From assembly GCA_965655095.1 (NCBI GenBank), contig OZ296655.1, positions 18,724,001 to 18,788,000 on the forward strand: a DNA stretch of 64,000 nt, read 5' to 3'. The first letter of the stretch is position 1; every line of letters starts with the position of its first letter. The notes beneath the pieces were generated by a model, which was not told the DNA's origin, made no database searches, and saw only the letters and a program-made list of their open reading frames with translations. A program made the position numbers and the translations under genes. Source of the stretch: Haplodiscus bocki. Lineage: Eukaryota. Of the stretch, positions 21,200-54,984 are shown piece after piece.

Positions 21200-22448
21200 T
21201 CTTCGGCATCACTTAGTATTCGATTATTGTCAAAAAATTGTTGCATTCATGAACTAAGAGCACTATAATTTTGTTCAAAAAAACCTTCTTCACAAATTTC
21301 AAAAAAATCACAACAATTATCCCGTTTAAGACTTTTATTACATCTCTCCACATCAACATCATATCTTTAGTATTTAGTTTTATGGCTGTCTAAAAGCCCA
21401 TGATGAACCCTATTGTAAAATTTAACAAAAAGTTGACAAAACACACAAAATTAAAAGTTATCTTTTTTACATCCGTCATATATTGTTTTCTTTTGTGTTC
21501 GCTTTTCAAACGGTCGCGTTTGTCGACTTTTTTTACATTTTCATCGAAAACATTACAATAAAAATTCGCTAAATTACATTCTTTTTGTTATTTTAAACAC
21601 CATTAAGTATTATTCGTCCCATTGTAAAGTTACAAATGTTACAAGTTAATCACTTCACTTGTTTAGCACATTATACTTTGGAAAGATTTGCCAACTTTTT
21701 CAAAAGTATTTATCGGTTGTAATTTAATTTGAATTTAACGGAAGCTCGCGAAAAATTATCATCAGATTTGTTGATAAAAATTTTTTCACCTGTCCACTCA
21801 GTTTTTCAAAAACTTCACCGGCCAACTAGTTTAATTTCACGCTTTCAAGTGTAGCCAAATTAGCATTTCTGGCAATGCTCCCCCTTTATTAAATTAATTC
21901 TTTCGATCGGACTGACTCAGAATTCTATGTTGTAGCAAGCGCGTCAAAGACAGTGGGGCGTTGGTAAGACAACCACAAACACTTCGACAGCGAGTGGCCT
22001 CAACTTTAGTCAATGACATTACCACCAGACTATAGCAGGCGAACTTAAAATGGTTGTCAATGTATATATGCATTTTACTCTTGAACAAGCTCGATCGAAA
22101 ATAATGGTCGCTGCGCGAACGGTGTCTTTCTTTGCTACACATTAGTAAGCTCGTATATGTGTTAAGTCTAAAAAGGAAGCAATAGTTGTATGTGAATGTA
22201 AAGCAGTCAATATAGGAAAATACAACGTCATTATTTTGTTTTTAGGTTCGTATTAAAAGTTGAAAATACGGCTAGGGACGCGTGGTTGGGCATTAAAAAT
22301 GTATGCTATTTTATAATGTTTTCAGGGGTGGATTTTATTTCGATTGATTTTTGTTGTTTGTTTGGTAGGTTTTGTTGATTTTGGGGGTTAATTTGGTTTA
22401 AATAGATGCTTCGAAGATTTTTGTCCCCGTAATCAAAAGTCTCATTTA
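21200..22448 (-). repeat. Right terminal inverted repeat of Polinton #1
   Basis: Reverse complement is colinear with 3560-4710 and 8575-8760. It is clearly diverged, with many substitutions and indels. Confidence 0.88.
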
Positions 22449-26464: not shown

Positions 26465-27140
26465 GGACCTGGACAAAAGCAAGAAACAAGCTAAAAATAG
26501 AAACAAGCGAAAACAAAAACAAGTAAAAGCAATAAATATTCTTGTTTCGATTTGTATATACTTTTGTTATTTAATATCACCCTGGCCCCGTATTTCAAGT
26601 TCCAGTTAGACAATCTTGTTTCGTTTTGTTTATAGGTTGTTGTTCAATATCACGCGTTCCCGCATAGCTAGCGTCAATTATCAAAATTTTCGTTAATAAA
26701 AAAATCATACTTCTAAGCTACAGAAATCATAACCTTTTGAACCGCGAAGTTTCTAAAGTTCAGTCAGCACTCCCATTCTTCCTTTTGGAAACTTTCCAGT
26801 CCCAAAAATCTCATCTCTCCAAACCTTGTGAAATTTCAATTTGTACTCACTTTACTTCGGACTACTAGTTATGTAAGCGAACATTTTATTTTATCTAATA
26901 TTTCAAATTAATATTATTACAGGGATCTTTCATTCAGAACAATCCCAAAAAAAACAAACAGAATACCTATCTAAAACAAACGTCTTCGTATCCGAACTAT
27001 TGAAAAAAAATGAAAACTCAAAACTCTTGTCGCCAAATTGGCATTTTTGTCACGGTTGTTAAATTGATGACAGGAGTGGGATTGTTTTAAAAGTTTTTTC
27101 TAGTCTGGCAAGACCGTAGTTTTCCAAAAACTGCCTGAAG
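26465..27140 (+). repeat. 5' LTR (portion alignable to the 3' LTR; 5'-truncated, may extend to ~28142)
   Basis: ggacctggaca.aagcaagaaa...tttgtatata...ccagttagaca...tcatacttctaagct...aagttcagtcagcactc...ttttgtcacggttgtt is repeated at 38958-39640. Confidence 0.85.
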
Positions 27141-28353: not shown

Positions 28354-30168
28354 ATGCCCTTCTACGACCATCCTGAATTCTTCCTACACCAAAAGTTTGA
28401 AGAAGTTCACTCCCATTATCATTTTTCGGGCCCAACAAACACGTTGAAGTACACTTCAAAACAGTTGACAAGTACTATTGCAAAAACACAATCGGAAATT
28501 TTTTACAAGCGTTGAGCCAAAATTTGAGCGTTCAAGCTTACAATTTTGCTTACATCAACAAAATTGTCTGGAACGGTAATGGAGACCCCATCAAATTTTT
28601 TGCCTATAATTTCCGAGAGTTTCCTTCTCATGATTTTCACCGCGAAATTTTTCCACATACTCCCAATTGGTTACGTCTTTATTCGTGCTTAGCTGATTAC
28701 AGGCATTTGTATAAAGACAAACTTGTAAACGAGCACATGTTTGGAGAGCTAAAAGACCAACTTTCTATTAATCAAACTCAAAATCACAGTAAAAACTACG
28801 CCAGAATGACTGACGTTTACAGTTAAATGGAAACCTTGGCTGACCAATCAGCAGCAGGAAAGGGAAATTGAGCCGCTCCAACTCAGAAAAATGCTTCTTT
28901 TGGATCTCACTAGACCCGATAAGTCAACACTGGAACCTCAATGGGACCACTTTTCTCCACAATTCTTGGACCTGAAGCTAAGCCATTTCCACCCATGGTT
29001 GTTTATCCCGGATCATTTGCCAGCAGCACAGTCACAATTCCTTCCTGCCTCAAGCCTGAATAGCTTACCGGTTCCGGAGACTTCAAGGATTACCTCCAGG
29101 AGTTCAATACTACAGCGAAGCTGTCCAGCTGGTGCTCGTTGAAACGGGATCATCGTTTCTAAAATTGTGCTCTACGATTACTAGAAAACAACCTACTTTT
29201 TTTCACATTTTTGTCCCCCAAACAGCAAAACCTTTACAACCTGCTCGTCGATGTTTTCACGCAGAACTACAAAACTGAAGTCGATACTTTAAAAGCACGA
29301 TTAAAAGCTGCAAAACACCGACCGGGACAAGATATCGCCACGTTCCGACGTAGCATCCCCACTCTAACAGGACGCGCTTGTCGTGCGCACCCTCATCTAA
29401 TTGATGAAAATGTTCACACTGGTTTCATTGAGGGTTTAAAAAACTCCATATTGCGCTGGGAATTGAGAAAAACAAAACCGTCGACGGACGATGAAACCTT
29501 AGCTTGGATATTGAGCTCGACTCATTCCTGGCTTTGGAGCGTCAAAACAAGGCTCCACTTTTTATCCAGTAACCAATATATTTAACCAAGTCGCAGCAAA
29601 CAGTTCTCAGAAAAACACCGTCGACGAACTGCTCCTAACACTACGTGACGAAATCAAAAATTTGAAGTCCCTGAATATTCGGAGAGAAGCTTCTGGTGAT
29701 CGAGACCGTCAACAGTACAGCTCGAACGACCAAAATTGAAACAAGACTGATTCCAGCGATCGAAGACGAAAACGATGCAACTCTAACGGAAGAAATGGAC
29801 TCCAAGAAATTTGTGATAACGGGAAACGTCGTAACTCGAGAAACCGAAATGGTAGCTCAAATTCTCAGTCAGTTTGATTCTAAGAGGACCGCGTTCGTAA
29901 ACAGCAAGACAATCGATCACTGAACAGCGACCAGCGACATTTCCGCAACAGCCCACCACAGAACAACAACGGGACATCGAGGCAGACCAAGAACAATTTA
30001 AGCAACAGAAATTCTACTGTTAGCAACTTCAGAAGCCATAATCAGGAATGTTGGCACTGTATGGGCAAGAACCATGCCTCTAATGAACGTAAGACTTGTT
30101 TCAACTGCCTTCGAGTTGGCCATTTCCGACGAGAGTGCTTAGCCCCAAGAGCCAACAAAAAAAACTGA
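28354..30168 (+). pseudogene. gag: Gypsy Gag with long N-terminal extension, capsid domain and two zinc knuckles
   Basis: LKPE*LTGSGDFKDYLQEFNTTAKLSSW...ALRL...LKARLKAAKHRPGQDIATF...FIEGL...LRWELRKTKP. Knuckles CWHCMGKNHASNER (last C lost) and CFNCLRVGHFRREC at ~30048-30140. Confidence 0.88.
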
Positions 30169-30199
30169 AACTGTCATCGCGAAAGGGCTTTGGCGCAGA

Positions 30200-33100
30200 T
30201 GTGAACGCCTCATGTACATAAAAAGCTGTTGCACTGAATTCAATACTTAAGTCTCGTAGTGTCTTCGTAGAATTGACGACTTTTCACAGAATTGTGGAAG
30301 CAGTGTGCAACTCTGGAGCAAGTGTGTCTTTTCTGAGCCCTGAGATATACAGTGACCTGAAAAAGACTCAATAGTTTGCTCTAGAAACTACCACGCGGCA
30401 TCTGAGAGCTGCCAATGGCCTCTCAATGGCCATGGGAGAATCATAAAAGTCCCTGTTCACCTGGGAAACAAGCTTTTTCACAATGAAATTCGGGTGTCAT
30501 AAAACTCACAAGCGGATTGGTTTTTGGGGTTGGACTTTCTGGAAGGTCAATAGTGTGACCCATTGTTTTCAAGAAGGGAGCTGATATTGGCTCAACCCAA
30601 TCCGTTCACTTTTACCATAAAAATTTGCATTTGATAGCGATGCCGTGTTCCGACTTATTGTCACCGAAACCGTTCAAGTGCCAGCAGGCTATGCAAAACT
30701 TTTTTAAGCTCTTTTTCTAAATTGAAGGTAACCAACTTTCCATCTAAACGGTGGCTTTGAGCCATTCGAAAAAATTTAGGCCATTCAGGACGTCTCAATC
30801 CCAAATATATCAGTTGAATTTTCTCGAGACGCAATCTCCATAGTTTTCAATAACACGACAAGACCCGACATTAATATGTTCAAAAAGATTTATTTGGGTT
30901 CCTCACTAGTTGTAATTGGAGACTGTTTGAACAACAATAGCACAGCGTGAGGCAATGAAAACATCTCATGCAAGCAACAAGCCCACTCCCAGTCAAAAAG
31001 GAAACAAGAAATAACAATTTGCAAACGTTGGTAAACTCAGTTGATTCCGGCATCAAAGCGAAGTACTCCCGACAGTTCACAGATCTAGTTCAAGAATTTG
31101 ATAGCGTCTTCTCGTCCACTGAATGAGTTTTGGGTCATTGCCATGCCACTGCGCATCGCATCGAGATCTAGCCCGGATCAAACCCAGTCAAAATTCCGAA
31201 TAGACTAATGCCTCTCCACTACAAAGACGATATTCAATCAAAAAATGACGTGTTCCTGGAAAAGGACTTGATATCGCCTTGTCATAGCCCTTATAGTTCC
31301 TCCAGCCATGTTAGTGCCAAACAAGAAAGGAAAACTTGACCTCGTCATTGGCTACCACCAACCTAGAAGAAAACAGTCAAATCTAGTCGGCCGATGCCAA
31401 CTATTGAAGAGACCTCTGATAAATTGGAAAGCGGCACGTACTTTTCAACAATAGATATTTCTACTGGATTGTATCAGGTGCCATTGGACAAGGAAATTCA
31501 AGATTACACTGGCTTCAGCACACCCGTCGGCTCCCTTAAGTGGCTTCGAAGGCCAGGGGGCCTCACAGGTAGCCCTAATATCTTCCACAGCCCCATAGAA
31601 CATTTTTTTCAAGTCTCACAAGGAAGACTTGTGTTTGATATCTTAATGACTGTATCAATTTTGTAAAGACCGCGGAAGGGCACATCTCTTGTCTAATCCA
31701 AGTTTTCCAACGTTTTTCCGAGGCAAATCTCAAAATAAGTTCATCAAAAGGTTCATTTTTTCAATGCAAAGTTCAGTTCCTTGGCCGCGTTGTGAGTGAG
31801 AATGGCTTCCAAGTGGATGCCGACAAAATCACAGCTGTTCTTGAATTCCCAGTGCCAAAAAACCAACTTAAATGAAGTCTTTTTTAGGTTTGGCATCCTA
31901 CTACCGACGTTATGTCAAGGTTTTGCTTCCATTGTCCGACCTTTACACAAAGCTAGTGAAACGTCATGCGCCTTTCAGTGGACAGACGAAGCGCACATTG
32001 CGTTCGATTTTTAGAAGACAAGTTTGACTACCACTCCATTTTTGGCATTTCCTTCGCTCCAAAAACCAAGCATCCTACACACAGACGCAATCCATATTGC
32101 TATGGGAGCGGTGTTGGTAGAAGAGCATGATAGTTGCGAACGCATCAACTGCTATTTTCCAAAGGTACTTTCGGAATCTCAAACCAACTCGGCAACACGC
32201 TGTGGAAGTTTGTGATTTGTGACCTTTATGCGACACTTTCGCCACTACTTTGTCAAGCGTCTTTTCACAGTAGTCACAGACTATCGCGCACTGCCATGGC
32301 TGCACAGTTTCGAGGGACCAGATGGCATAACAACGCGTTGGCTGAAAAAGTTAGCTCCTTTCGACTACGCAGTGAAACACCGACCGGGAAAGTTAATTGG
32401 TCATGCAGATGGTCTATTCAATATCCCTCCCGCGATGAATACAGTAGCAGAATTTTTCCCAGAATCTGATCCACAGTTTTGTTCTGGTGTTCACGCTCCA
32501 CGCAACTCACTCGACGTCAGCCATGATACCGATCATAGACACGTTACCTGACGAACAAAGAAACCCAGATCATCTTTCTGTTCCTGCAAAAAATTCTCGA
32601 TAGGACGAAGTAAATTGAAACTAGCGAGAAGTGGTAGAAAACATCTTTGACTCCAAAGATTTAATAGCCCACTGTGTTAGCTGACTTTAAAATGTCAGCC
32701 AGTATTCCCAGACAAATTCGTCGCAACTACTTTTTACCTACCCCATTATTCTTGACTACACTCTCCATCTGGCCCCCGTGGTTATCCGACTCAAAGCGGT
32801 ACATTTACCAACTCACAACCAAGCAAAATTTCTTCATTAAGCACACATTTGGTACCCCGCGGGCCTCTCTGGGGCGTTTGTGCGGCCACGCCAATCAAAA
32901 TGACGTCCAATGAATCAACTTGCCATGCATTGGATCGGGTCTTGATAAACTTGATTGGAGCAAGGTGCGATAATTGACAGATGAGACGTTTCGAACCTCC
33001 CTTGTCCAGATAAAAGTTTTTACGAAACCCGGCGTCAAGTATGACGACAACACTTTTGAATAGCTGAGCGACAGCCACGCCTTGTTGAAAGCACAAGAAG

Positions 33101-34911
33101 CAGACTAGGTTCTGCATCGCCTTCGAAAATTGGTTCGGGAGAGACATCTCCCTAAGAACAACGAAATGCAGGTACTCCAGCGTTTGGGTTGGCAGCCTCA
33201 TAACCGATCACAGGAGTTGTACCTGAAAGAAAACGTTTTGTGCCGAAAATTTGAGTCCCTCGACGGTAGTCAGTCGTACTTCTATGAGATCATACCTCGG
33301 TCCCTAGTTCCTCAAGTTCTGATTTTATTACATAGTTCACCGGCAGCAGGTCACCTGGGCGCGCACAAAGTGAGCAACATAGTTCGCCAGCGTTAATAGT
33401 GGCCTGGATTCTAGGAAGATGTTAAAAAGTTCCATCGATGTTGTGATGTGTGCCAAAAACGATCAAGTCCGCCGAAGACGTTTTGCCATTCTTTAATTGA
33501 CTGGAAAATCAGTTACCTTTTTAATCACATTGATTTGATTTTCAAGGACAGATTCTTAGTTTTAACGGTATTCAGTTTGTCATTTTGATTCGCGATCACT
33601 TCACGAAACGCTGGGAAGTGATACCGTTCCCAGATCAACAGGCACTAACCACTGCAAACGCGCTTTTGGAACACTGGTTTTGAAGACTTGGCTGTCACTA
33701 TAGCATTCACACTGACCAATAGCGAAAATTTGAATCCCAGCTCTTTCAACAGTTGATGAGACTGTTTCGAATTGAAAAATGCACACAACCTTCTTCCATC
33801 CTCAGTCCAATTCAGTCATCGAAGGCTTGAACCGCACGTTCTTGATTATGCCCACCAAGAGCATTGACAAAAAGCAAGCCCAGTGGTCGTACTTTTTACC
33901 TTTCGTCTTGATGACATATCGTTCCTCGGTGCATGAGTCCACCGGTTATACTATCAATTTCCTTGCACTCAGTCATCAGTTCTTCTTTCTTCTCCATGTG
34001 ATGTACCCTTCCCCAGAAACCAACAAGCCAACGGACGTAAACAAACATGTGATGCAAAAGCAAGCTGTTTTCCACACAATTTTCAAGCCTAATTAATGTA
34101 ACACTACCACTCAACAGAAACGTAGATATGCTTTATAAAACAAAAACGTTCAAGGTCCAACATTTCGCGAAGGAGTTTACATCCTGTTTCATTATACCGT
34201 TACAGTAATAGGGGAAAGTCTCAAACTCTTCAATCCCTGGAGAGCTTTTTGCAGGAGGCTGAAATGTATCATAGATGTGAACTACAAAAATGAAGATGTG
34301 AGCACTCAAAAACAATTGAGTGATCCCAATGGTCGGTTGAAGCTTTATCACGGACAACCTCTTAGTCCACCTAGCATACCCGATTGTCAACCTGCCAACA
34401 GCAAAGTCCTCACACGGCCACCTTTGAGGCCCATTAATCTTGATTGTTGTGTTGTAACCTTGCCGCCCCAGTCTTTCTCAGCGTGCCGCGAACACGCCTA
34501 ACACCTTTCCCAACACACCGTTCACCACCATCGAGCCCTGCTGTTTCGGTGACTTCTCCTTTACTTCCGTCAATGACTCCCAGGTCATTCCCCGATTCCT
34601 TCAATGCTTCCACAATCCCGTCAGATTCAGCGTCCCCACCCAATCCTTTCTCTTATAAACCAACTCTAGTTCCGGACTTTGATCAGCAACCGCACTTTCC
34701 CGAGCGTACGCCCTCTTCTCGATCATATGTTGTCCCCTCCCCAGTTGACACCATCATCCAGAAGGCTGCGCGGCAACTTCAAGAGGCTAATCAAATGCTA
34801 CCTCTTCCTCCCGCACATTCTCCACGGCAAAACCTTACCCACCAACGCAAGGCGGAGCCACTCTACAAGGTTCGTCTACCCGGCGATCTCACTAACCTTC
34901 TGTCTTTATAG
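30200..34911 (+). pseudogene. pol: Gypsy Pol: protease, RT, RNase H, macrodomain, integrase, Pro/Ser-rich tail
   Basis: PR VCNSGAS (DSGA-like). RT SPYSS..., MPTIEE..YFSTIDISTGLYQV..TGFSTP, VQFLG, FLGLASYYRRY. RH LHTDA..IAMGAVL, HFRHYF..FTVVTDYRALPWL, HRPGK..GHADGL. INT LHSSPAAGHLG...CDVCQ, HPQSNSVIEGLNRT, YRSSVHESTGYT. Confidence 0.95.
32628..33030 (+). pseudogene. TARG1/OARD1/DarG-type (Poa1p-like) macrodomain within Pol
   Basis: EVVENIFDSKDLIAHCVS/ADFKMSASIPRQIRRNY...RYIYQLTTKQNFFIKHTFGTPRASLGRLCGHANQNDVQ*INLPCIGSGLDKLDWSKVR*LTDETF...IKVF follows the TARG1 pattern AHCIS.D..MGAGIA / RYIYYLITK / SMPRIGCGLDRLQW. Confidence 0.88.
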
Positions 34912-37230
34912 AAATCCAGGAAACCGAAACGCCATTGTTTTTTTGTAACACGCATCAGCATTCTGTCAAAGCCAGTGGTCAGTACCGAGTTATTTCCCGG
35001 TAATCTGCTTCTTCAAGAGCCTTCATTTCGCAAGACGTCTACAGCCCCGTTCTCACTGCTTCTTTCCTACGCCCTGTAATCTCGCAGATGTGCCGTTCGC
35101 CACCCATTGGAGCAATCCTGTGGACAAACGACTGTTTAGGAAAGGTGCCGAGTTTGTTTTTAAGTACCAAGCAGTGATGTCAGAGAGTGAGAGCAGGGTT
35201 CGTGTGTTTTCACCGTTCCTCAAGATTTCCGAGATCAATTTGACCAACGCTTATACAATTCTTCAAACACGAGGCCATACCGACTCAATGACTGGCAGGG
35301 CTACAGTCAAACTGTCGATCAGAGCGCATGGGTAACTTATATGACCAATTTTTTGACCAGCTGGATCAGAAATTTTCCCTGATACAAAAGAAGGTCAAAG
35401 CTGCACACACATCAAAATTGCTCGGTGGAGTTGGCAGCGTCCTTCTTTCTATCTCCCGCTAAACCTAAGCATAGCACTGATCGTAGTGAACGTGCAATGG
35501 GACTAACAGCAGCGGCCAAAAGACTGTTTCTTGGAAATCCACTCAAAAACGCTGCATGTTCAGCAATCTCCATTTTTAATCTTCTCACCGACAGCAAGGA
35601 GCTATAATCAAATACTGACCACGTCATGGGATCTTAGAAACAATTTCAAGTTGTCTTGAAAAAATTGCTGACAAGGAACACTGAGAAAGTTTTACTCTGG
35701 GAAATGAAATTAAACAAACAATGGAAAATGTACAGAAAAAACAACGGAATTAGTTGGCTGTCAATTGAGTTCCTTCAAACAGAGCTCTTTGAAATGAAAT
35801 GCGTAATTGCTGCATTGTCCGTACGCAATGTTGACCTCAGAGAGATTATGATTTTCAAGCAACAGATCTTTGACTAGGTGGATCGTTTGGGAATCCTGTA
35901 TGTACACATCAAAAGCTACCGAGCCGCTTTTTATGTATACAAAATTGCGCCCTTTTTCACAATTTCGTCACTTGCAGCTGGCTTTCCTTCGCAACAGTCA
36001 CTTCAGCCCTCAATTTTTCTTCCCTTCTCAGTTGGCTACCATAGTGAACGATCTCGCCAAAGACAAGATCATGAGAGTCCAAAACCTTTCCATGCGATTC
36101 GTGTCAGCCACGAAGCCATTTAATTTGACGTTAAATTGGTCTTAGAAATCGCCCTTCTCTCTCAAGCTATCTTCGTTGTCCTCGAATTTCTGATGAACTC
36201 CAAGGAGCCCATCAATGTCCATCAAGCAACCCCCATTTACCAACCTAACCAGGCTGGAGATACGGCTTCCTTGTACCAGTTTCCGAAAGTTTTTTTGCTG
36301 CCTCCCCTGACAACTCCCTCCCATTCCGCTGAACTGAGTGCTTCTAGCTTTCATCAAAGCTCAGGAAACGACCGTATTAAATTTTGTCGTCAATGTTTTT
36401 CCACTACGACTGACGAAACACATCTTTGTCTGCCTTCCTTGTATCATAAATATAACATTCTTCGCCCTTCGTCTTTGTAGAATTGGGTCCGTTCTCCTAC
36501 TGGAGGCCCCTCGAGCCTTCTTTTTAGTTGATGGCATGTACCCTAAAATTCAAATGAAATATTATAGTGGTACTGGTTCCCCTGTTTTTACCTTATCTCG
36601 TATAGCTTGCCTCGTCCGAACCAGCTGCCCCAGCACATTCTCGTTCAACCAAGGCGATTGGAAATCGTCCCTGATATCAATTTTTGCAAGACCATTCCGC
36701 AGCCTTTTGGTTGCCTCCACTCGGCTCATACCATCCCCCGAACAGGTATTTAGACATGATCCCGAGGTTACTCACAAATTTCACACGTTTTCTGTTGCTG
36801 AAGCCTGTCAATTCGTCCTCAGTAGTGTCCGATTTGAATGACCTGAATTTTTTAACCTTGGAATCATGGCTAGTGAAACGCTTGCTGACATCACTCGACC
36901 TATTGCACAGAACTACTCATCTATCTCTTCAGCTACATCAGCCGCTCTGTCATCCTACCTCCCAACCGGCACAGGAGTCTGTTTCTTCTCATCTCCATCA
37001 CCCTCTCCATCCTGACGTTTTTCATCAGTTTCACGCTTTTTTGCTGACAATGGCGGCGGTTCTTCGTGCACCCAAACGTTTCTTCAGTCCCACCTCAGGT
37101 CGACATTTGCAAATTGTGGACGGCACTCCTTCCACCGCCAAGGATTTTCTTTTCCATACCTTTCTGTTTGAAATTCCAGGTTTTTCAGGCACTTGCGCAG
37201 GCAGCCCTACAACAAAAACCCTCTGAAACT
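34912..37230 (+). pseudogene. env: Envelope-like class I fusion glycoprotein (F-protein-like), disrupted
   Basis: RSER (RxxR) followed by a hydrophobic Ala/Gly segment AMGLTAAA..LFLGNPLKNAACSAISIFNL, a helical heptad region, a Cys-rich region (IKFCRQCFSTTTDETHLCLPSLY...LRLCRIGSVLL.EAPRAFFLVDGMY...ACLVRTSCPST), and a hydrophobic SILTFFISFTLFC near 37010-37046. It lies between pol and the 3' LTR. Confidence 0.78.
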
Positions 37231-37871
37231 CTCAATGACGCTCTTTCTTCAACGCTCCCCAATGAGAACCCCCTTCTTCTATTAAACTTTCTAACCCTAG
37301 TCCTTTCTTGAATCGTGTGTTCCTTTCTGGTAGTGCTCTTATTTACACTGAAACCTCTAGTTGAAAACGTCACCTTTCTAAACTCCTTCCTCATCAACCC
37401 TTTTCTCTACTTCTTGCCAGCAGCTTTTTTATGCCCTTCCGACGCGTTTTCGCGTTCTCGATGCTCAGCGTTGCCCACCCACTGGTTCCCCTTACCTGCG
37501 TTCCCAGCCGGTTGCCGTGCCATTCATGCAGACGGTTTTCAGCACTTCAACCCACATTTTTCCGTGTTCACCTCAGAGTCCTTATGACGATTTCCCTTCC
37601 TGACATACTTCTCCGTATGAAAATTGCATTACTTGCTCTTTTTTATGTCCTATTTACTATTAATTTGTTGAAGGTATTTTGTCGGTGTGGTCGTTCTTTG
37701 TTTCGAGTCCTCCTTCAGCTTCTTCAAACGTCAGCCTGCGGTTCGCCAGGATGTCCTCACGAGTTCTGGTCGCGTTCACGCTGTTGCCGTAAACGACCAC
37801 GCTTCTTAGTTGAAACCCTCCGATGCCATGTCACTTACATTTCCCCTCAGCCTGACACCGTCTAATCACAG

Positions 37872-38831
37872 AATGTCAACACACCTAATCGACCGTTCAA
37901 GCGTTGCCTTCGCCAAATCGGGTTGTTCCCACCTCCTACTGCAGACTGCCCAGATTCTGTTGACCTGCCCTCCAGCAACTGTTTTTGTCCTGAAACTCTT
38001 CCTCCTTCTGTGTTACCGACGTCGAGGTGATTTCTATGCAGACTGTTGCAGAGGTTATGGACGTGTCTGTCCAGGCGGACATCGACGGAACAACAGCTCA
38101 GAACGCATGGGCTAATCTTACTAAGGACTTTTCGTCAGTTAACCAACTTGACACAGCTTTACAGGAAGCCCATCGGGGAACCGAAGTCTAATATGACTTG
38201 TACGTTGAATCTGACAAAGTCTTAACTGCTGCTCGTGCCTCCATTGAAAAGCTGATCACGGAACTTCGACAGCTGCGCGCTTCCTTGCAAGACCTAAAAA
38301 CTGCTCATATCAGTCTCATTAAAGATTGTCTCGATAAACTTGAGGAGATGAGCTCTCTGCGGACTCGGATGAGCCAGGCAGACAACTTACAGATCAAAGT
38401 GCTGAGCAAAATGCTGCACACAAGTCTTCTACCCCTGCCCACTGACCTGTCTGCTGCTTCCACTCCAGATGATACTCTCTATCATTGTCTCTGTTGTAAT
38501 CCCTCAGCGGACACAGCCACAAAAACCCACCATGCCAACACCTTCATACGCCGCGTGCACCCTGACAAGACCGGTTCCTAGAAAAATCCGCCGGTTGGTG
38601 CTGCGTCCTTCCTCATACCCTTCCTCACCAACATTAAAAAAGTTCTCAGAAAAAAACCTTTCGCGCAGTCTATGACCACTGTAGGTTGACCATTTTGCAG
38701 GAGCTACTCGACGATCCTCTGTGTTGCCTCTTGTGCACGCCTACTTATGCGAACGGGTTTCCAAGTAAGCAGGGACGTTGCGAGTATCCCCATTTTTTAG
38801 GCTCATTTCCAGCTCCTGAATGGCTCCGTTA
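37872..38831 (+). pseudogene. Accessory ORF4: coiled coil plus DnaJ-type J-domain
   Basis: Heptad helix SIEKLITELRQLRASLQDLKTAH...LDKLEEMSSL, then DTLYHCLCCNPSADTATKTHHANTFIRRVHPDKTGS*...FLTNIKKVL. After a frameshift in an A-run it continues FRAVYDHC. Confidence 0.72.
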
Positions 38832-38881
38832 GTTCCCTCCGTCAGCGTTCTTGCCTCATAGGTACCTTTTCAGGTTCCACC

Positions 38882-38901
38882 GGGGGGGGGGGGGGGGGGG
38901 G
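38882..38901 (+). other. Polypurine tract (G20)
   Basis: Run of G immediately 5' of the 3' LTR. Confidence 0.75.
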
Positions 38902-39713
38902 AAGCAAACATTGCTGATTGAACGGAAGCAGTCTCAAGTGGAGGGAGTCAATAAAACGGACCTGGACAGAAGCAAGAAATCAGCTAAAACAGAAACAAGC
39001 AAACACAAAAACAAGTAAAAACAAAAAGCATTTTTGTTTCAATTTGTATATACCTTTGTTATTTAATTTCACCTCGGCCCCGTGTTTCAAGTGCCAGTTA
39101 GACATTTTGGTTTCGTTTTGTTCATAATTTGTTGTTCAATATCAGCCGTCTCTGCATAGATAGCATCAATTATCTGTTATTCTATGTTCTTGAAATCTTT
39201 ACGGTAGCATTCTTGACAAAAGTTCTCATACTTGTTCCCCGCACCCAGTAACTTGAAAATAATTGTTTAAACAAGAAAGATCATACTTCTAAGCTGGAAA
39301 AACCATAGCCATTGGAACAACGAAGTTTGTGAAGTTCAGTCAGCACTCTCATCTTTTTTTGTAAACCTTCTTCTTCCTATCAAATAAATCTCATCTCCTC
39401 AACTCTTGTGAAGTTTCAATTTGTACTCTCCGTCGAACTAGTAATAATATAAGACAACAATATTATTTTACGTATGTTTTCAATTCAACCTTAAAACGCA
39501 GATATTTTATTTAAAACAATCTCAAGTGAAAAATAAAGAAAACCTATCTAAAACAACCATCCTGGGATCCAAAATATTGAAAAAATTGAAAACTCAAAAT
39601 TCTTCTTGCCAAGTTGGAATTTTTGTCACGGTTGTTGAATTACCATGCCTCATGGTTTCAAAATTTAAGAAACAGGGGATATTTAGTTCCACTTGCCACA
39701 AGACCTGCCTGAA
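38902..39713 (+). repeat. 3' LTR
   Basis: Starts right after the poly-G tract. It is a direct repeat of 26465-27140 with an extra ~80 bp at ~39175-39255. Confidence 0.85.
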
Positions 39714-40830: not shown

Positions 40831-41833
40831 AAACAACATCTACCTATAACATACTTATGTTTAGTGATGTACACATAACCATAATCGTAATCGGTGGAAT
40901 AATTTTTCTCAGACATAACAACATATAATTCCACATTTATGTGAACGTAGAAAAAAAGAAAAAATTACACCGTCGCTTTTATGTTCCACTGAACAACCAC
41001 TACACTTGCACATTCCAATGAGCGTCAACTTGTTTCACTTTTTTTAAAGAAATTTTTTGACGCTTAATGGAATAATGTGGAATTTATGAAATTGTCCAGT
41101 GAGTTTTTGTCTTTGCGTGACTGAAAATACATGGTGACTGCTACATAGTTTTTTAAGGATATCTCCGTGAATATTTACCCGATTAATGTCAAATAAAAAC
41201 TGGTGTGAACTTAATTGAATTAAGAAGTTTGTTTCGAGAAAAAAGTTGAAAAAAATTGAACTTACCATCTTAACAGGGCAAAAACTAGACTTACCATCTT
41301 ACCATGGTATACTCAGAGCTTGTCGGTCTCAAATAAAAACGAAAACTCATAATTTATTTAGTCTACCCTGAAAGTTTGAGCTTCATATCTATGATACATT
41401 TTGAGACAACCAATTTTGAAAAAGTTCAAAGGGTTAAAACATAAATAAAAACCACTCAAGTGGAAATTTTTTTCATTTTCCGTTTAGACTTTCCCACGGT
41501 CGCTTAAACATGTGAAAGTTACGAAATCAACGAAGTTTTGAGCTACAGAAAAGTTTAATATATAGTTGAAAACGTCTTGAAAAAAGCTGTTCAATGATAG
41601 TTTTTTTCGAAAACGTCGGCTGAATTCATTACCATCGAAATCCTGAATGTAACCTCAAACATGCTTTGTCAATGAAACATTTTTAGTAGCAGTGGAGCAT
41701 TATATATCTTTAGAAAGGTCTTGAAAAGGGTAATTTAATGCTAATGTTTTCAAAATTTTTTACCATATCATTTTTCATCAATATGAATTTCTTTTTTAAT
41801 CATCCAATTACGAATTGCAAAATGAAAAAGATT

Positions 41834-42085
41834 TTATAAATCAAAACAATGAGTTTTTACATATTCGGGATTTTGAGATAGTATTTTAAAAATTTGTCTA
41901 TGCATTGTTGGTATAGGAAATTTTAGATAATAACGTATATTTACATTTGATAGATTACTATAAATTTTTATTGTCAGTTTATTTATTTGATTAAATATAA
42001 AACTTTTTGTCGAGGAGTTTTTAGTTTTCTTTTTTTCATTCAAGTTCGTGAATTTGTCAGCTATTGTTAAATTAAATATATCCAT
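41834..42085 (-). pseudogene. Polinton accessory ORF downstream of pPolB (copy A)
   Basis: 83 aa ORF duplicated at 48820-49071; function unknown. Confidence 0.45.
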
Positions 42086-42358
42086 ATTACCATTATTTTT
42101 AAGTTGAATATCCTATACACATTTATATTGAAATGTATGAAAATATTTTTTTATAACAGTCTCTAAGACAAATATCAATTATAGAATCTTTTTTCTGAAC
42201 GAGTGGTTTAATAACTTCATATTCTTTGACAACGGTTAACTGGTTTTCGTTCATTATAACATTCATGTATTGAAGAGGAATATATTTTAAAAAAACTTTT
42301 CAACAAAACATAATAAAATTGAACTTGTATTTAGATAGTTTTTTATAAATAAACCATC

Positions 42359-45250
42359 CTATTCTTCAAAATAAAGAAGCATATGACCAAATTCATTAGG
42401 AGCTTCTCGTTTTAATAAATATAAATAGCTTCAATTTCTATAATTTGATTTTTACATTTTGTATATAAATTTTTATCCTTACATTCATTACAAAATCTCA
42501 TTTTCGTTGGTTTAACAACTCCATTATTAAATGATTTTTTCCAACTTTTAGGTAACCTAGCTGATATTTTTTTGCCTTCTATCATTTCAAATATTGAGAT
42601 CGATTAAATAATCGTTTACTATCGTTGAAGTCTTTGAAGGTCATGTGTTGTTGATTAATACCAATTTCGTAAATAGTGAAACAATATTTTGTGTCAGGAG
42701 CAAGGAATAAACCGTAAAAGATGCTTCCTGTTTCGTATTCTTTTTTACCATGGCATAACTTCTTACCAACTAAATTTACTTTACCTAACACATCCCAATG
42801 TTTTTTTTCTATATACACACTATCCGTATCTCCATAATAAATACTATTATTATAAAGTCCGTTGATTTCTCTGATAAAATTATTCAATATTCGTTCACTT
42901 TTACTTAATATAAAAGCCCGTATTCGATTTGGTATTATATTTTTCATATCATTGTCACCATCTAAACCATCGTCTTTCTAAAATTTCAATATAAAGATTC
43001 CATTTGGTGTTTTTCAATAACCTAACACATTTTCATCGTACTCTGTTCCCATCCAATGTTGTGATTTACAATTATATAATTCATCTATGTCTCTGCGTAT
43101 TTGAACTCCGTAAAGACTGTTCATCATTAGTTTAACTAAACTTTTCATCAAAAAGTATTTTCGTCTTTAAATTTTTTTCGTAAAGCAAACATTTTTTCTA
43201 TAACTTTTGTAAAAGGCGATATTCTAAAGATTTCTCAAAAAATAACTCCTCCGTAAATTCGAATTACTTTACCTCCAACTTTCGCAATTTCTTGACTATC
43301 AACTGATGTTAATGTGTCATTAATTTTTTTATTTTTCATGCGATTAACTTCGATATTTTTATCTTTTTCTTTAACTGGTAAAACTTGAAATATAAGATCA
43401 GGAGGATTGTAATGTTTTAGTTTTAATATAGCAGATTCATTACCATCTTGGTTAAAAATTTGATTGTTAAAAGCTTTCACATAAACATTGTTCATATGAT
43501 GTTTAATAGCAAATCCAGTTTCTTTTTTAGGACACAGCGAGTTTTCATCCCACATAGCAGAAGGATATAAGGAGGTAGCATCAAAGTCCATCATAAAATC
43601 AGAAAGATTCGGTTTTTTTATTTTTTTGTGTATTGGTAGTTTTTTGAGTTTGTACTTGATATAATTATTCCTTACTTTTTTGTTGATATCTCTATAGTCA
43701 TCAAATTAGGATTCATATTCGTCTTCTATTTTCTTTCTATGTTCATTTGAATATTCAAAAAGTTTATCCAAATCTCGCATGTATTGCCATTAATGTTAAT
43801 GTTAAAATCTTGTGACATAATATTAGATACTTCATCTGAATTAAATGAGCTATAATATTGATGTAAAGCTGCACGTCTACCAACTTTTATGCTTTGTCTT
43901 ACAAAATGAGACAGAAATTCATCGTTATAAGTATAGATTGGTTCACCGTTTTCATCTCTTAAACTAATAAAATATTTATTCGCTAAAGAAGGTAGTGTTA
44001 AACTATTTTTCATACCAACTCCTGTTAATTACTCCATTCCCTTTGAATCTCTAGCATGAGCGAAAGCAGTTGATAAAACGCCGTTCTTAAGATAGGGTAA
44101 CCATTCACTTTCTTTCATTTCCCAAGTGTCCTCATTAATTTCATCATGTTTTAATTCTTTTTAGGTTGATCTTTCTTGTAATTCATATTTTTTTCGTTTT
44201 TTCTAAGAATCTTTACTATATAATATGCCGCATCTGAAATGAACATACTGAGGGATCTTTTTGTTTTGCTCTACATTACCGTTGAATATTTTAAGAGATA
44301 CAAATCCTGATCCGTTTTTAATCAAACTAACAACTGTTCTCCATTGAGGTAATCTATTAAAAAAACATAACTATCAAATCCTGATCATTTATGGGCAAGT
44401 AAGTAGAAACTATATTTAACAATGTTTTTTTAATTCTTTCGGTCCTCCTTTGAATTGTAAAACGTAATCTAACATTTCGTTAATATTATATAATCCTTTA
44501 AAAACATTACAATCTTTCTTACATTTAGTCATTTTCTTTTTCTGATATATCTCGATTGTATTCACCTGAAATTTTACTTAGTTAATGTATACAATTAGGA
44601 TAAGGAACACATTTTAAATTATTAAAAGTTTCTGTATCATAAACAACCATGTTAGTTATTTGAGATTGAACTTGTTTAGGTTTGTTTTCGTATTTAATAA
44701 AACTTTTAACATGTTTATCAGATATAACATTATCAACAACTTTAAAATTTGGATATAACTCGTTTTCTATTGCCTTATTAAAAATAATATTGTTTGATTT
44801 CCGAATTAAGCAGAAATGATTATTATTTATTTTTATTGCTATATTTCTTTCTGGAATATGTGTAGGCCATACTTCTTTACCGTTAAAATAACCAATGTTG
44901 ATATTGTATTTTCTACAGACTGGTTGACTTCTAGCAGATGCCAGTACATTAGATCTTCTTTGTTCAATTAAACTAAAAGTTAAAAAAAGTTCTGTATAAT
45001 CTTTACCAGTTAGATAAATGATACACTTTTTATAAAACGATTATCACTTGTAGGAATACAACAGTTGTTAACTAAATATTCAACAATGTCTTATCTGAAA
45101 TCCGTACCTCTACCATATTCAGATCTGTTTACTTATTGAATTCAGATGTGTTTATTTTAAACAGCTATTCTGTAAAAAGAACATCTTCACTATCGTAACC
45201 ACCTTTATCTATAGCATTAAAACAAGTTTCGAAATCATCGACATTTTCAA
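42359..45250 (-). pseudogene. pPolB of Polinton #2, copy A
   Basis: Exo I VVYDTETF, Exo III PYLKNG, motif A DFDATSLYPSAM, motif B LVKLMMNSLYG, motif C YYGDTDS. Confidence 0.95.
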
Positions 45251-45254
45251 ACCT

Positions 45255-45865
45255 ATTTAAAAAAAACTTTTTTCGAAAAAAACTCCTAAAACCTCGAATA
45301 AGAAAACACATTTAATCGAAACAGATCGAGAAAAGGATTTTTTTATAAATATTTTTTTCAAAAATTCCCATAAAACAAAAACATTAAACATTATTCTAGA
45401 AATTCTTAGAAGCTGTTTTTGCAGAATGTTTTAACCGTACCCTGAAAGATTTTCTTAAACCACCTGTTTTTGAACCAGGTGATGCTAACTGGATTGATGA
45501 ATTAGCCACAATAACAAAACAGTATAATAATTGAGTACAAACTTCTACTAAGTTAAATCCACTACAAGCTTCTTTGAAAACGAACGAAAGATTTGTTTAT
45601 CAAAATTTATTAGACGAACGAAAGAAAATAGAACCAAAGTTTCATGTAAACAACCGCGTTCGAGTTGGTGCTTTGCGAAAAACGTTCTCAAAATCGGAGA
45701 CGACAAGTAGGACTTATAAATTAAATAAAACTAGTGAAGTTATTAATGATACACTACCGAGTTACGGCATTGATAATTTACCAGAAAAATATAACGAAGC
45801 CTCATTGAAAAAGACAGAATAAACAATGAAAGAGAATGATACCATCATGAAAAAGTTAAACTTAA
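45255..45865 (+). pseudogene. 5'-truncated integrase, copy A
   Basis: HLIETDREKDF, AVFAECFNRTLKDFLK, NWIDEL..ITKQYNN, RKTFSKSETT. Confidence 0.88.
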
Positions 45866-47148
45866 ATTAAGTCAAATTGTCTTTGACCATCACTACTGAC
45901 AGACACTATATTATTCGTTGATAAAAGAGCATATCCGATTAAAAATGTTGCTGCTGGAACGGCTGGTCTGAAATCAAATCTTACTTTTATAAGTTGAGCA
46001 GAAATATAATCTTGATGATGACTTATATCAAAAACATATACATTATAACCAGGGTTACCATCTGGATAAAGATTAGAAGTTACAAAATCTTTTTGCGTAA
46101 TATAGGTTTTTGAAGCATTACCTTTATCTAGATGTCTAAAACAGGAAACAATTTCTCCATATGCTTGTGAATATTTTTCAAAAACATAACTACAATTTTT
46201 TCCTGCATCCGAAAGCTTTACGTTGCCAATGACACATTGAGCATTTACTACACTTGGTTTACGAAATGTATCATTTTTCTGATGTTGTTGATTAATTTGA
46301 TCTCTTTGCATAAATCCTACTATTACATAAAATGGTATATCAACACCATCTCCAAAGCCCAGCTCAAATGTCCAATCATTTTCAGTAGTTACATCTTTCA
46401 TATAAGATGATCTTTTAACATATGACAATTCAGTTGGAGCTTTAGATACAATATGTCCTAACATTAAATTTTGATTTGACATACCCATAATATACTGCGG
46501 AAAGTACCAACTGAAGTCTTCTATAATAACTCTTCCAGCCAAAGCAAGATTTGCTTCAATGTCAATTCCTGCCCGATGATTTAATACAAGATTATTACTT
46601 TTTCTTTGAAATGTTAGCTTATAACCCAAACCATGAGTGCAATTATCTTGCTGTTCTGCAAAACCAAAAACATCTTTTCAATAAAGTCTAACATGGTTAT
46701 TTCATTCAGTTGTTTTGTTATTAGTCAATTCTCTTTCTCGAACTTCATTACTAGTGCGAAAATCGATTGATAAATCGTCACTATCTCTGCTACTTGATAA
46801 CATTTTGTACATTAAACAAATAACAGGAGCATTGTCTACATCCTCTATTTCCTTTCCACTTGAGCTTGTCAGTCTGTATTTATTAAATAAGGCAGTAGGT
46901 CCTAGGTTAACAAACTTTATATGATCATTATCTGCAGATCGAGCATGCGGACCAGCTTTATGACTTATATTAAAATCTAAATCAAGATTACTATCTTTCA
47001 ATGAAACAGCACTATAATCTCTAAGTCTATCAATAAAAACATGACTCTTGTCTCCATTTACAAGAGTTAACGAAGGTGGAGTATATCTAATATAATCACA
47101 TTTGAGAGTGGGTCTTTAACAGCAAGTTTTTGTGATATGTTAAACATT
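45862..47148 (-). pseudogene. Major capsid protein, copy A
   Basis: LKCDYIRYTPPSL...FVNLGPTALFNKYRLTSSSGKEIE...FGFAEQQDNCTHGLGYKLT...IPFYVIVGFMQRD...YSQAYGEI...GYNVYVFDI...SSDGQRQFDLI. Confidence 0.85.
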
Positions 47149-47237
47149 TATAAAAGTAAAAAAACTTCTGTTCTGTTATGTTATATAAGATTAAAATTTT
47201 TAAAGATTTTTTTGTGCTGAGTTGGATTCATGCATTT

Positions 47238-47990
47238 TTATTCTAATAAATTATCACTTATAGCAACCATTTCTTCCTTATTTGTCTTTGAATACTTTCC
47301 AGTTTGTTTCTCCTTCAATAATAATCCTAATCTATCACATAATTCATTTGGATTTTCTGAAAGGAAAAAGGTTTTTAACCCAGATGCGAGTAGAGCTACT
47401 TTAATATAATAGATTTTCCAGACGTTTTCATCTCTAAGACTTTCAACTTTTGCATGTATATCAAAATGCATTTTATCCAAGAAATTAGTAAATTATTTCG
47501 CATCAAGTGAATGTGTTTTATTAAAATCGTAATCAGTTATCATTGAAAGAATATCTCCTTGTAACGTGAAAACTACACCACTGGCTGTAAAATTTAGCTT
47601 ATCATCGTATAAGGCACTTTTTTTCTATCCAGTTTGTAATCATTCCGGTCACCACTATCAAGATCGTCTAACAATCGAAATTAACTCGTATTTTTTGGTA
47701 CTAAGAATTTTGCTATAAGTCTAATCAAACTCTAATAAATTACTTCACTTTTATTCATCAACTCCAAAGTTTCAACGTTTTTATTTGATTCATCCAACTT
47801 CTCATTTGCTTTTATATTGGATTTGGTCTCCTCAAGTAATTTTTGATTTGTGTCTGTTAATATTTTTGTAATCCTTTCGAATATTTTTTTTATATCATAA
47901 CGAAAACCTTGTTTACCTAATTTTTCAACTAATCTAATTTGTTTTACTTTTAACTTGAGATCATCTAATTCTTCCAAGTTTTTCAATTCA
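47238..47990 (-). pseudogene. Polinton conserved uncharacterised protein, copy A
   Basis: ORFs 47732-47986 and 47238-47480 (FLSENPNELCDRLGLLLKEKQTG). Homologous to 14891-15580. Confidence 0.65.
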
Positions 47991-48004
47991 TCTTTACTTT
48001 TAAT

Positions 48005-48287
48005 TCAAACTATCATATTTATATCAGTAAACCAGAAAGGTTTCGTCTCAGGAGTACATCCATTAGAAGTATTTTTTTTACCATTTCTGATAGTATATAT
48101 ACCCTCTCCTATTTTAGCAAATCTGTTTTTTTGTAAAAAATCATAATCATTTGACCAAGCTTTACGACAGAGTTTTTTCCATGTTTCTAAATTCATATCT
48201 AATCCTGCTCTATCATGAATTAATAGTATGATATCTCTTAGAGTTTGCATAAATGAAATTTTTATAGTAGAATTATTACGAATAGGG
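48005..48287 (-). pseudogene. C-terminal fragment of packaging ATPase, cut by the tandem junction
   Basis: IRNNSTIKISFMQTLRD...AGLDMNLETWKKLCRKAWSNDYDFL, homologous to the C-terminus of 15590-16150. Confidence 0.8.
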
Positions 48288-48819
48288 TACCATGGTATAC
48301 TCGAAGCTTGTCGGTCTCAATTAAAAACTAAATCTCAAAATTTAATTAGTCTACCCTGAAAGTTTGAGCTTCATATCTATCATAGATTTTGAGACAACCA
48401 ATTTTGAAAAAGTTCAAAGGGTTAAAACGTAAATAAAAACCACTCAAGTGGAAATTTTTTCATTTTCCGTTTAGACTTTCCCACGGTCGCTTAAACATGT
48501 GAAAGTTACGAAATCAACGAAGTTTTGAGCTACAGAAAAGTTTAATATATAGTTGAAAACGTCTTGAAAAAAGCTGTTCAATGATAGTTTTTTCGAAAAC
48601 GTCGGCTGGATTCATTACCATCGAAATCCTGAATGTAACCTCAAACATGCTTTGTCAATGAAACATTTTTAGTAGCAGTGGAGCATTATATATCTTTAGA
48701 AAGGTCTTGAAAAGGGTAATTTAATGCTAATGTTTTCAAAATTTTTTACCATATCATTTTTCATCAATATGAATTTCTTTTTTAATCATCCAATTACGAA
48801 TTGCAAAATGAAAAAGATT

Positions 48820-49071
48820 TTATAAATCAAAACAATGAGTTTTTACATATTCGGGATTTTGAGATAGTATTTTAAAAATTTGTGTATGCATTGTTGGTAT
48901 AGGAAATTTTAGATTATAACGTATATTTACATTTGATAGATTACTATAAATTTTTATTGTCAGTTTATTTATTTGATTAAATATAAAACTTTTTGTCGAG
49001 GAGTTTTTAGTTTTCTTTTTTTCATTCAACTTCGTGAATTTGTCAGCTATTGTTAAATTAAATATATCCAT
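48820..49071 (-). pseudogene. Polinton accessory ORF (copy B)
   Basis: Nearly identical to 41834-42085. Confidence 0.45.
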
Positions 49072-49346
49072 ATTACCATTATTTTTAAGTTGAATATCCT
49101 ATACACATTTATATTGAAATGTATGAAAATATTTTTTTATAACAGTCTCTAAGACAAATATCAATTATAGAATCTTTTTTCTGAACGAGTGGTTTAATAA
49201 CTTCATATTCTTTGACAACGGTTAACTGGTTTTCGTTCATTATAACATTCATGTATTGAAGAGGAATATTTTTTTAAAAAAATATTTTCAATAAAACATA
49301 TCAAAATTGAACTTGTATTTAGATAGTTTATTATAAATAAACCATC

Positions 49347-52255
49347 CTATTCTTTAAAATAAGGAAGCATATGACCAAATTCATTTGGAGCCTTTCGTAT
49401 TAAAAAATTTAATTTAGCTTCAAATTCTCTAATTTCGTTAATTTGATTCTTACATTTTGTACAAAAAGTTTTATCTTTGAATTCATTACAAAATCTCATT
49501 TTCGTTGGTTTAACAACTCCATTATTTAATGAGTTTTTCCAACTTTTAGGTGACCTAGCTGATATGTTTTTACCTTCTATCATTTCAAACATTGAGATCG
49601 ATTAATTAATCGTTTACTATCGTTAAAGTCTTTGAAGGTCATGTGTTGTTGAATAATACCAATTTCGTAAATAGTGAAACAATATTTTGTGTCAGCAGCA
49701 AGGAATAAACCGTAAAAGATGTCTCCTGCTTCGTTATCATTTTTTCCATGGCATAATTTTTACTACCAACTACCTTTGCTTTACCTAAAACATCCCAATG
49801 TTTTTTTTCTATATACACACTGTCGGTTTCTCCAAAATAAATACTATTATTATAAAATTAGCTGATTTCTCTGATAAAATTAATCTCTATTCGTTCACTT
49901 TTACTTGATATAAAAGCCCATATTTGAATTGGTAATTTATTTTTTATAGCATTATCACCATTTAAACCATCGTCTTTTCCAAAATTCAATATAAGAATTC
50001 CATTTGGTGTTTTTCAATAATCTAACAAGTTTTCATCGTACTCTGTTTCCATGCAATGTTATGATTTACATTTATAAAACTCATCTATGTCTCTGCGTAT
50101 TTGAACTCCGTAAAGACTGTTCATCATGAGTTTAACAAAACTTTTCATCAAATAGTATTTTCGTCTTTAAATCTCATTCGTAAAGCAAACATTTTTTCTA
50201 TAACTTTTGTAAAAGGCGATATTCTAAAGATTTCTCATAAAATAACTCCTCCGTAAATTCGAATTACTTTAACTCCAACTTCCGCAATTTCTTGACTATC
50301 AACTGTTGTTAATTTGTCGTTAATTTTTCCATTTTTCTTGCGATTAACTTCGATATTTTTATCTTTTTCTTTAACTGGTAAAACTTGAAATATAAGATCA
50401 AGAGGATTGTAGTATCTTAGTTTTAATATAGCAGATTCATTACCATCTCGGTTAAAAATTTGATTGTTAAATGCTTTCAAATAAACATTGTTCATATGAA
50501 ATTTAATAGCAAATACAGTTTCTTTTTTAGGATACACTGAGTTTTCATCCCACATAGCAGAAAGATATAAGGACGTAGCATCAAAATCCATCATAACATC
50601 AGAAAGATTCGGTTTTTCTTATATTTTATGTATTGGTAGTTTTTTGAGTTTGTACTTGATATAATTAGTTCTTACTTCTTTGTTGATATCTCTATAGTCA
50701 TCAAACTAGAATTCATATTCGTGTTCTATTTCTTTCCATGTTCATTTGAATATTCAAAAAGTTTATCCAAAATCTCGCATATATTGCCATTAATGTTAAT
50801 GTTAAAATCTTGCGACATAAGGTTAAATAATTCATCTGAAATAAATGAGCTATATTATTGGTGTAAAGCTGAACATCTACCACCTTTTATGCTTTTTCTT
50901 ACAAAATGACTCAGAAATTCATCGTTATAAGTATAGATTGGTTCATAGTTTTCATCTCCTAAACTAATAAAATATTTATTCGCTAAAGAAGGTAATGTTA
51001 AACTACTTTTCATACCAACTCCTGTTAATTCCTCCATTCCCTTTGAATCTCTAGCGTAAGAGAAAGCAGTTGATGAAACGTCGTTCTTAAGATAGGGTAA
51101 CCATTAATTTCCTTTCCTTTCCCAAGTGTCCCCATAAATTTCATCATGTCCTAATTCTTTTTAGGTTGATCTTTCTTGTAATTCATAACTTTTTCGTTTT
51201 TTCTAAAAGTCTTTACTATATAAAAATCCGCATCTGAAATGAACATATTGAGGGATCTTTTTGCTTTGCTCTACATAACCGATGAATATTTTAAGAGGTA
51301 CAAATCCTGATCCGTTTTTAATCAAATTAACAACTGTTCTCCATTGAGGTAACTTATTTAGAAAAACATAAGTATCAAATCCTGATCCTTTATGAGCAAG
51401 TAAGTAGAAACTATATTTAACAATTTTTTTTTAATTTTTTCGGTTCGCCTTTGAATTGTAAAACGTAACCTATCATTTCGTTAATATTATATAATCCTTT
51501 AAAAACATTAGAATCTTTCTTACATTTAGTCATTTTCTTTTTCTGATATAACTCGATTGTATTCACCTGAAATTTTCCTTAGTTTATGTATGCAATTAGG
51601 ATAAGGAACACATTTTAAATTATTAAAAGTTTCTGTATCATAAACAACCATGTTAGTTATTTGAGATTGAACTTGTTTAGGTTTGTATTCGTATTTAATA
51701 AAACTTTTAACATGTTTATCAGATATAACATTATCAACAACTTTGAAATTTGGATTTAACTCGTTTTCTATTGCCTTATTAAAAATAATATTATTTGATT
51801 TCCGAATTAAGTAGAAATGATTATTATGTATTTTTAAGGCTATATTTCTTTCTGGAATATGTGTAGGCCATACTTCTTTACCGTTAAAATAACCAATGTT
51901 GATATTGTATTTTCTACAGAATGGTTGACTTCTAGCAGATGCCAGTACATTAGATCTTTTTTGTTCAATGAAACTAAAAGTTAAAAAATGTTCTGTACAA
52001 TCTTTACCAGTTACATAATTGATACACTTTTTATAAAACAATTATCACTTGTAGGAATATAACAGTTGTTAAATATATAATCAACAATGTCTTGTCTGAA
52101 ATCTGTACCTCTACCATTTTGAGATCTGTTTATTTATTGAATTCAGATGTGTTTAATTTAAACAGCCATTCTGTAAAAAGAACATCTTCACTATCGTAAC
52201 CACCATTATCTATAGCATTAAAACAAGTTTCGAAATCATCGACATCTTCAAACAT
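49347..52255 (-). pseudogene. pPolB of Polinton #2, copy B
   Basis: VVYDTETF, LAHKGSGFDTY, PYLKNDV, DFDATSLYLSAM, KLMMNSLYG, YFGETDS. Confidence 0.93.
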
Positions 52256-52257
52256 TT

Positions 52258-54982: not shown

Positions 54983-54984
54983 TA

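Follow-up and report, generated by a model that had tools for sequence, protein, structure and literature searches.

It is established that RNA viruses use ADP-ribose-erasing macrodomains as a counter-defence. In human TARG1, K84 acts as the nucleophile and D125 as the hydrolytic residue, both residues additionally lining the ribose pocket (PMC6397177), and G43 is required for the binding of ADP-ribose (PMC5928194). The enzyme strips ADP-ribose off acidic residues and off the 5'/3' phosphates of DNA and RNA, thymidine-linked ADP-ribose being the product of bacterial DarT (PMC8053099), and it reverses the DNA ADP-ribosylation made by PARP1 (PMC11102865). No description of a macrodomain in a Ty3/gypsy Pol was found among the best literature matches, subscription journals, Repbase and GyDB being outside the coverage, and a word search of the available text of PMC9503650, PMC10221186, PMC6397177 and 10.1101/2021.11.30.470311 retrieved no retrotransposon macrodomain.

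The present locus carries a TARG1-type macrodomain in the Pol of a Ty3/gypsy element that has an env-like gene; the copy is broken here. From sequence and a structural model, the reading that is somewhat favoured for the intact copies is that of an ADP-ribose eraser which would shield the element from PARP marking by the host.

The decayed element and its macrodomain copy

The window, which is the whole 64-kb stretch of DNA analysed, holds a decayed element of ∼13 kb with LTR remnants, a primer-binding site and a series of ORFs that all contain frameshifts, namely gag, pol, one that is env-like and ORF4. Its features are as follows.

26465..27063, + strand: 5' LTR (alignable part), decayed; aligned to the 3' LTR, its 3' end being the LTR end of intact relatives
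27065..27082, + strand: primer-binding site, against the 3' end of host tRNA-Leu(CAG), one mismatch here; from the sequence
28938..30165, + strand: gag with zinc knuckle, broken; tblastn against intact Gag (E 3e-86, with frame changes) and zf-CCHC
30105..32452, + strand: pol (protease, RT, RNase H), broken; Pfam and tblastn against intact copies
32625..33021, + strand: TARG1-type macrodomain in Pol; three-frame translation, PDB alignment and published TARG1 pattern
32821..32823, + strand: Lys codon (LTTK), aligning to TARG1 K84; PDB alignment
32944..32946, + strand: Asp codon (GSGLD), aligning to TARG1 D125; PDB alignment
33070..34483, + strand: pol (short pre-integrase segment and integrase), broken; Pfam and tblastn against intact copies
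35084..37154, + strand: env-like gene, broken; tblastn against intact ORF3
37699..38647, + strand: ORF4, broken; coiled coil and weak DnaJ-like match in intact copies
38881..38903, + strand: purine (G) run ahead of the 3' LTR, likely the polypurine tract by its position
38958..39640, + strand: 3' LTR (alignable part), decayed; aligned to the 5' LTR

The two LTRs align to each other in two blocks (85% and 76%). Elsewhere in the window, a 7-kb tandem duplication (88-99% identical) with decayed ORFs occupies 41300-59000, where the ORF motifs presumably recall a B-family DNA polymerase and a packaging ATPase, possibly of a Polinton/adintovirus-like relic. Inverted repeat arms, ∼75% complementary and 17-19 kb apart, lie at 3560-4446 and 21687-22447, and ORF fragments at 4872-7373 (−) have motifs which we take to be LINE-like.

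The macrodomain is spread over two frames by three-frame translation, 32625-32681 (N-terminal strand and 'AHCV' motif) and 32683-33021 (the remainder), with one frameshift near 32680 and the stops TGA at 32911-32913 and TAA at 32971-32973. When translated with X placed at the breaks, it matched only human TARG1/C6orf130 in the PDB (five sequences at E≤1, the best at 7.6e-9), and it contains the published TARG1 pattern TKx(30,35)Px[IL]GxGxD. The preliminary description, which had followed the whole pattern across one frameshift and two stops, is thereby confirmed; the catalytic Lys and Asp that it considered retained do align to K84 and D125, a numbering derived from the TARG1 PDB alignment. 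The position it gave, within Pol with RNase H on one side and integrase on the other, is borne out by the Pfam flanks, which are RNase H at 32219-32362 upstream and, downstream, the zinc finger of integrase at 33292-33393. On the broken copy, Pfam Macro alone is too weak, falling below its cut-off (E 0.03-0.05); the 81-aa open ORF had no match in Pfam. The TARG1 Gly43 position is occupied by Ser in this copy. As Pol is also broken by several frameshifts, the window copy is a relic.

Intact relatives, class of the domain and selection

The host genome (1.5 Gb) is likely an animal's, judging from its gene content. The domain search there gave 4904 candidates, and among the 150 that were scored, ∼40 lie within open frames longer than 1500 aa by hand count. 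The LTR pairs are 99.1-100% identical in nine of the ten elements fetched, and 4-bp target-site duplications are readable in eight of the nine with LTR pairs; near-identical LTRs together with these duplications indicate recent movement of this group, family A. Its intact Pol is a single frame in the order PR-RT-RH-macro-short segment-integrase. Gag, the PR-RT-RH-IN order, LTRs, primer-binding site and target-site duplication make family A a member of Ty3/gypsy (Metaviridae). LTRs usually end in TG...CA; those of family A end in TG...AA or TA...AA (L031:1207 to L032:3933 and relatives), with 4-bp duplications.

The primer-binding site of family A is complementary to host tRNA-Leu(CAG), and two of the three scanned host loci that terminate with the complementary motif are tRNA-Leu(CAG). 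This motif, from the likely family A primer, has 526 matches across the genome and also occurs in a large tandem array of ∼424 bp period (G000:C1 from 161.09 Mb on).

The intact ORF3 of ∼800 aa matches Baculo_F in one copy (E 1.4e-4, 21.1 bits against a cut-off of 24.1) and a torovirin spike in another (E 1.6e-4), a third copy having none; it carries a basic RGKR site followed by a hydrophobic stretch. These features weakly suggest that ORF3 is env-like. A conserved ORF4 after env has a coiled coil and a weak DnaJ-like match at E 0.003 (window 37699-38647; L032:2104-3189; L040:3164-3952), Atlas returning no usable match for it. One copy has a further open frame of 263 aa, with no Pfam match.

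The intact domain matches human TARG1 with an E value of 2.4e-24 and about 35% identity. In the comparison of its AlphaFold model (pLDDT 91.8) by Foldseek, TARG1 occupies ranks 1-8 (TM about 0.82, E down to 4.4e-13), followed by DarG. By pattern, pocket residues and closest fold, the domain of family A is a TARG1-type macrodomain. Of the label TARG1/DarG used previously, the first half stands and the second is loose, DarG membership being rejected: the DarG model NF048014 scored 43 bits against a cut-off of 250, over profile positions 69-146 of 338 only, and TARG1 outranks DarG in both sequence and structure.

Besides the window, the equivalents of K84, D125, G121, G123, H32, S35, I44 and T83 are present in 29/29 family A loci and those of G43 and C33 in 28/29, these loci belonging to three subfamilies and being mostly near-copies; the full pattern occurs in all 30 when the window is included. 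The preliminary description had made its case depend on a macrodomain match and on conservation of the catalytic pair among copies, and both were found, K84 and D125 being kept at every one of the 29 loci. Among 22 database relatives, the Lys is kept in 21 and the Asp in 19; the diverged P0011, P0019 and P0022 have lost pocket residues and fail the full pattern.

The dN/dS across family copies, also proposed there, was calculated by the pairwise Nei-Gojobori method for 10 pairs from eight natural intact ORFs. For the four within-subfamily pairs whose dS exceeds 0.2, the values of the domain are 0.06-0.13, three more within-subfamily pairs being little informative (dS 0.05-0.07). Between the three subfamilies synonymous sites are saturated, and identity is 64-70% for the domain, 59-66% for the protease and 17-27% for the linker. 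Purifying selection is thus established for a domain of conserved fold, position and pocket residues in a recently active family.

Distribution among Pol proteins and the insect bridge domain

A second family of the same genome, family B, is 26% identical to family A in RT-RH and carries the domain after the integrase, in a Pol of 1923 aa with an env-like ORF downstream. Its loci keep the Lys in 20/20, the Asp in 19/20 and the full TARG1 pattern in 18/20. A conserved reverse-strand ORF of ∼370 aa lies between its pol and env (L072:1549-2664 (−)), and one copy of it had no match in Pfam at 1e-4 or NCBIfam at 0.1. Fragments of the family B macrodomain also form a tandem array with a period of ∼1.43 kb (G000:C12:67.75-67.80 Mb, L083).

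When 1.84 billion representatives were searched with a profile, 5223 matched at E≤0.001, and a domain scan of the 49 longer proteins among the best 150 of these revealed retroelement domains in 7. RT-RH-macro is found in the sawfly Athalia rosae (P0138) and in P0163, and RH-macro in a Gmr1-type Pol of the snail Nucella lapillus (P0176), whose cluster member P0326 has the integrase before RT. Integrase-macro is found in P0127 and P0096, and protease-macro in P0036, which was rejected as a member of family A (best identity 46%, macro part only). The Pol of P0120 ends, at residues 1174-1513, with integrase, a TARG1-type macrodomain and a Tpt1/KptA RNA 2'-phosphotransferase, a writer fold and an eraser fold thus lying within one polyprotein. 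Others among the macro proteins scanned are fusions with DNA ligase III, PNKP, BRCT, HMG, NADAR or SLOG. Some of the macro-bearing Pol proteins had already been flagged Macro by automatic annotation.

The succession of macro and Tpt1/KptA in P0120 would suit a role in RNA-end housekeeping rather than against PARPs, in which the domain clears ADP-ribose-1''-phosphate or ADP-ribose caps left by the repair of cleaved primer tRNA or genomic RNA ends. Fish ERVs have CNPase or macro ORFs (PMC4977317), Macro/2H/KptA of RNA-virus polyproteins have been proposed as RNA-end processors (PMC9503650), and the NADAR of an Ectocarpus Gypsy Pol has likewise been proposed for RNA ends (PMC12477816). Tpt1 occurs, however, in just one macro-bearing Pol among those examined, and the Pfam scan of intact copies found neither 2H nor Tpt1 in the ORFs of family A, so that such a role is highly doubtful.

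In a quick tree of 83 rows, the domains of family A, family B and insects form separate groups on an unresolved backbone. AU tests (36 rows) did not reject a single clade, whether for A and B (p 0.745) or for the whole set of 16 retroelement domains (p 0.698). Both a single capture with later shuffling and several captures stand as readings of the sequences; independent captures cannot be taken as demonstrated at p values of 0.70-0.75 for a single origin.

The bridge domain of insect Pol proteins matches TARG1 in sequence and fold; structural model comparison places the macrodomain over the entire bridge, and no RNase H stands among the listed structural matches of the model. In the domain adjoining the integrase, the G123 position is Gly in 16/108 and the K84 position is Lys in 57 of 72 aligned. 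The full TARG1 pattern was found in 3 of 121 insect-type proteins, where the copy bearing it is either a separate upstream one or the only one, and with the GxGxD loop lost the bridge domain was rejected as an active TARG1. The decayed sawfly domain, used in a region search, retrieved three proteins only.

Most insect-type elements have lost the phosphate-binding loop and would keep the domain in a non-catalytic role. Since the fold persists where the full pattern survives in so few, a retroelement can need a macrodomain without catalysis; that the fold outlives catalysis in these relics counts against a purely enzymatic account. The captured fold could be retained for spacing or for binding RNA, any catalysis being a by-product, as the insect-type copies without the loop suggest. 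For RNA binding, TARG1 does not depend on its ADP-ribose pocket (PMC5928194), and coronavirus Mac2/Mac3 are non-catalytic binders (PMC6397177). For families A and B this explanation is improbable, the pocket residues being near-invariant although overall domain identity falls to 52-70%.

The 'pseudo-RNase H' of insect errantivirus Pol has been interpreted as the product of an RNase H duplication (Chary and Hayashi, eLife 2026, PMC13524379); a word search of the main text of that paper finds neither 'macro' nor 'ADP'. It occupies the same position as the macrodomain, between RNase H and integrase, and the tandem (A-D-D) layout described there equals that of the two-macro sawfly Pol, the pseudo-plus-mini (A-D-B) layout being that of family A. 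Position and group thus make it likely that this domain, which defines the insect errantivirus lineage and had been taken for an RNase H duplicated in parallel with vertebrate retroviruses, is a decayed macrodomain.

Host PARPs, proposed function and known systems

In the host genome, 31 matches to the PARP family model were found. The 12 loci inspected comprise seven SF1 helicase-PARP fusions, two WWE-PARPs, two ankyrin-PARPs and one with a PARP match only. In at least seven long open frames, an SF1 helicase of ZNFX1-like type is joined with a single PARP domain or with two:

L100-L103, L105, L108, L109 (G000 C12, C11, C2, C3, C5): helicase-PARP fusions; Pfam scan

Three of the seven have a ZNFX1 domain match. 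The three helicase-PARP domains examined whole keep H-Y-E-like motifs, which we take to be the PARP triad. By their sequence, the fusions are candidate RNA-sensing ADP-ribosyltransferases, and ZNFX1 itself is an antiviral RNA helicase (10.1101/2025.09.05.674436). They are linked to the retroelement domain by co-occurrence only.

In the proposed mechanism, host mono-PARPs, for example the helicase-PARP fusions, would ADP-ribosylate element RNA, cDNA end phosphates or acidic residues of Gag/Pol. The Lys/Asp pair would take the tag off as in TARG1, allowing reverse transcription or integration to proceed. These substrates are plausible because TARG1 acts on acidic residues and on DNA/RNA end phosphates. 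In an animal, acidic residues of proteins and the end phosphates of RNA/DNA are more plausible substrates than thymidine-linked ADP-ribose. Host ADP-ribosylation of an LTR element was not found in the literature searched. The domain would be made and packaged as a part of Pol, presumably on the integrase side, as its linker to RNase H is long and variable and ∼17 residues separate it from the pre-integrase segment.

The C-terminal end of integrase is the chromodomain site, and the domain adjoins the integrase in family A and the insect group, and C-terminally in family B, P0120 and P0127. It might hence bind (poly-)ADP-ribosylated chromatin and steer the integration complex as chromovirus chromodomains do; PAR recruits TARG1 to DNA damage (PMC5928194), and chromatin readers have been captured repeatedly by Gypsy integrases (PMC12477816). 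Since K84 and D125 also line the ribose pocket, their conservation agrees with a binder no less than with an enzyme. Tethering is nevertheless unlikely, as the snail Gmr1-type domain lies behind RNase H, far from the integrase, that of P0036 lies behind the protease, and a pure reader would have less need of the conserved catalytic pair.

A wider proposal can be put forward tentatively: the Pol of animal Ty3/gypsy elements would have long and repeatedly included a TARG1-type eraser as a module. It would be catalytic in families A and B as well as in some elements of snails and insects, and the 'pseudo-RNase H' of insect errantiviruses would be its fossil. Animals would then police retroelements by ADP-ribosylation, for instance through ZNFX1-like helicase-PARP sensors, in an undescribed layer beside piRNA. 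An eraser in Pol and a decayed copy beside the insect-type integrase would, if this is true, point to an overlooked anti-retroelement host defence. A domain with apparently intact catalytic residues, under selection in recently active LTR elements, reduces the question whether retrotransposons are restricted by animal PARPs to one small protein and makes it testable.

Human TARG1 (OARD1, C6orf130; 4J5Q, 4J5R, 4J5S; ALC1-like class) shares with the element domain the fold, HCxS, G43/I44, T83/K84 and GxGxD125; TARG1 is, however, a free cellular enzyme, whereas the element domain is part of a retroelement polyprotein and known from sequence and model. The bacterial DarG macrodomain (5M31, 5M3E) belongs to the same class and forms the second-best structural group; it differs in its partial profile match, and the element has no DarT partner. 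The nsP3/Mac1 domains of alpha-, corona- and hepeviruses are also ADP-ribose hydrolases inside a viral polyprotein, suggesting a counter-PARP role by analogy, but they are of another macrodomain clade (PMC6397177), in RNA viruses that do not reverse-transcribe. Macrodomains also occur in the env-bearing, reverse-transcribing epsilon-like ERVs of fish (Basta et al. 2009, cited in PMC4977317), as an additional ORF in Retroviridae (PMC4977317), unlike the present domain inside a Ty3/gypsy Pol. The NADAR of Ectocarpus (PMC12477816) is likewise an ADP-ribose-processing domain within a Gypsy Pol, but it has an unrelated fold, is N-terminal in Pol and belongs to a brown alga.
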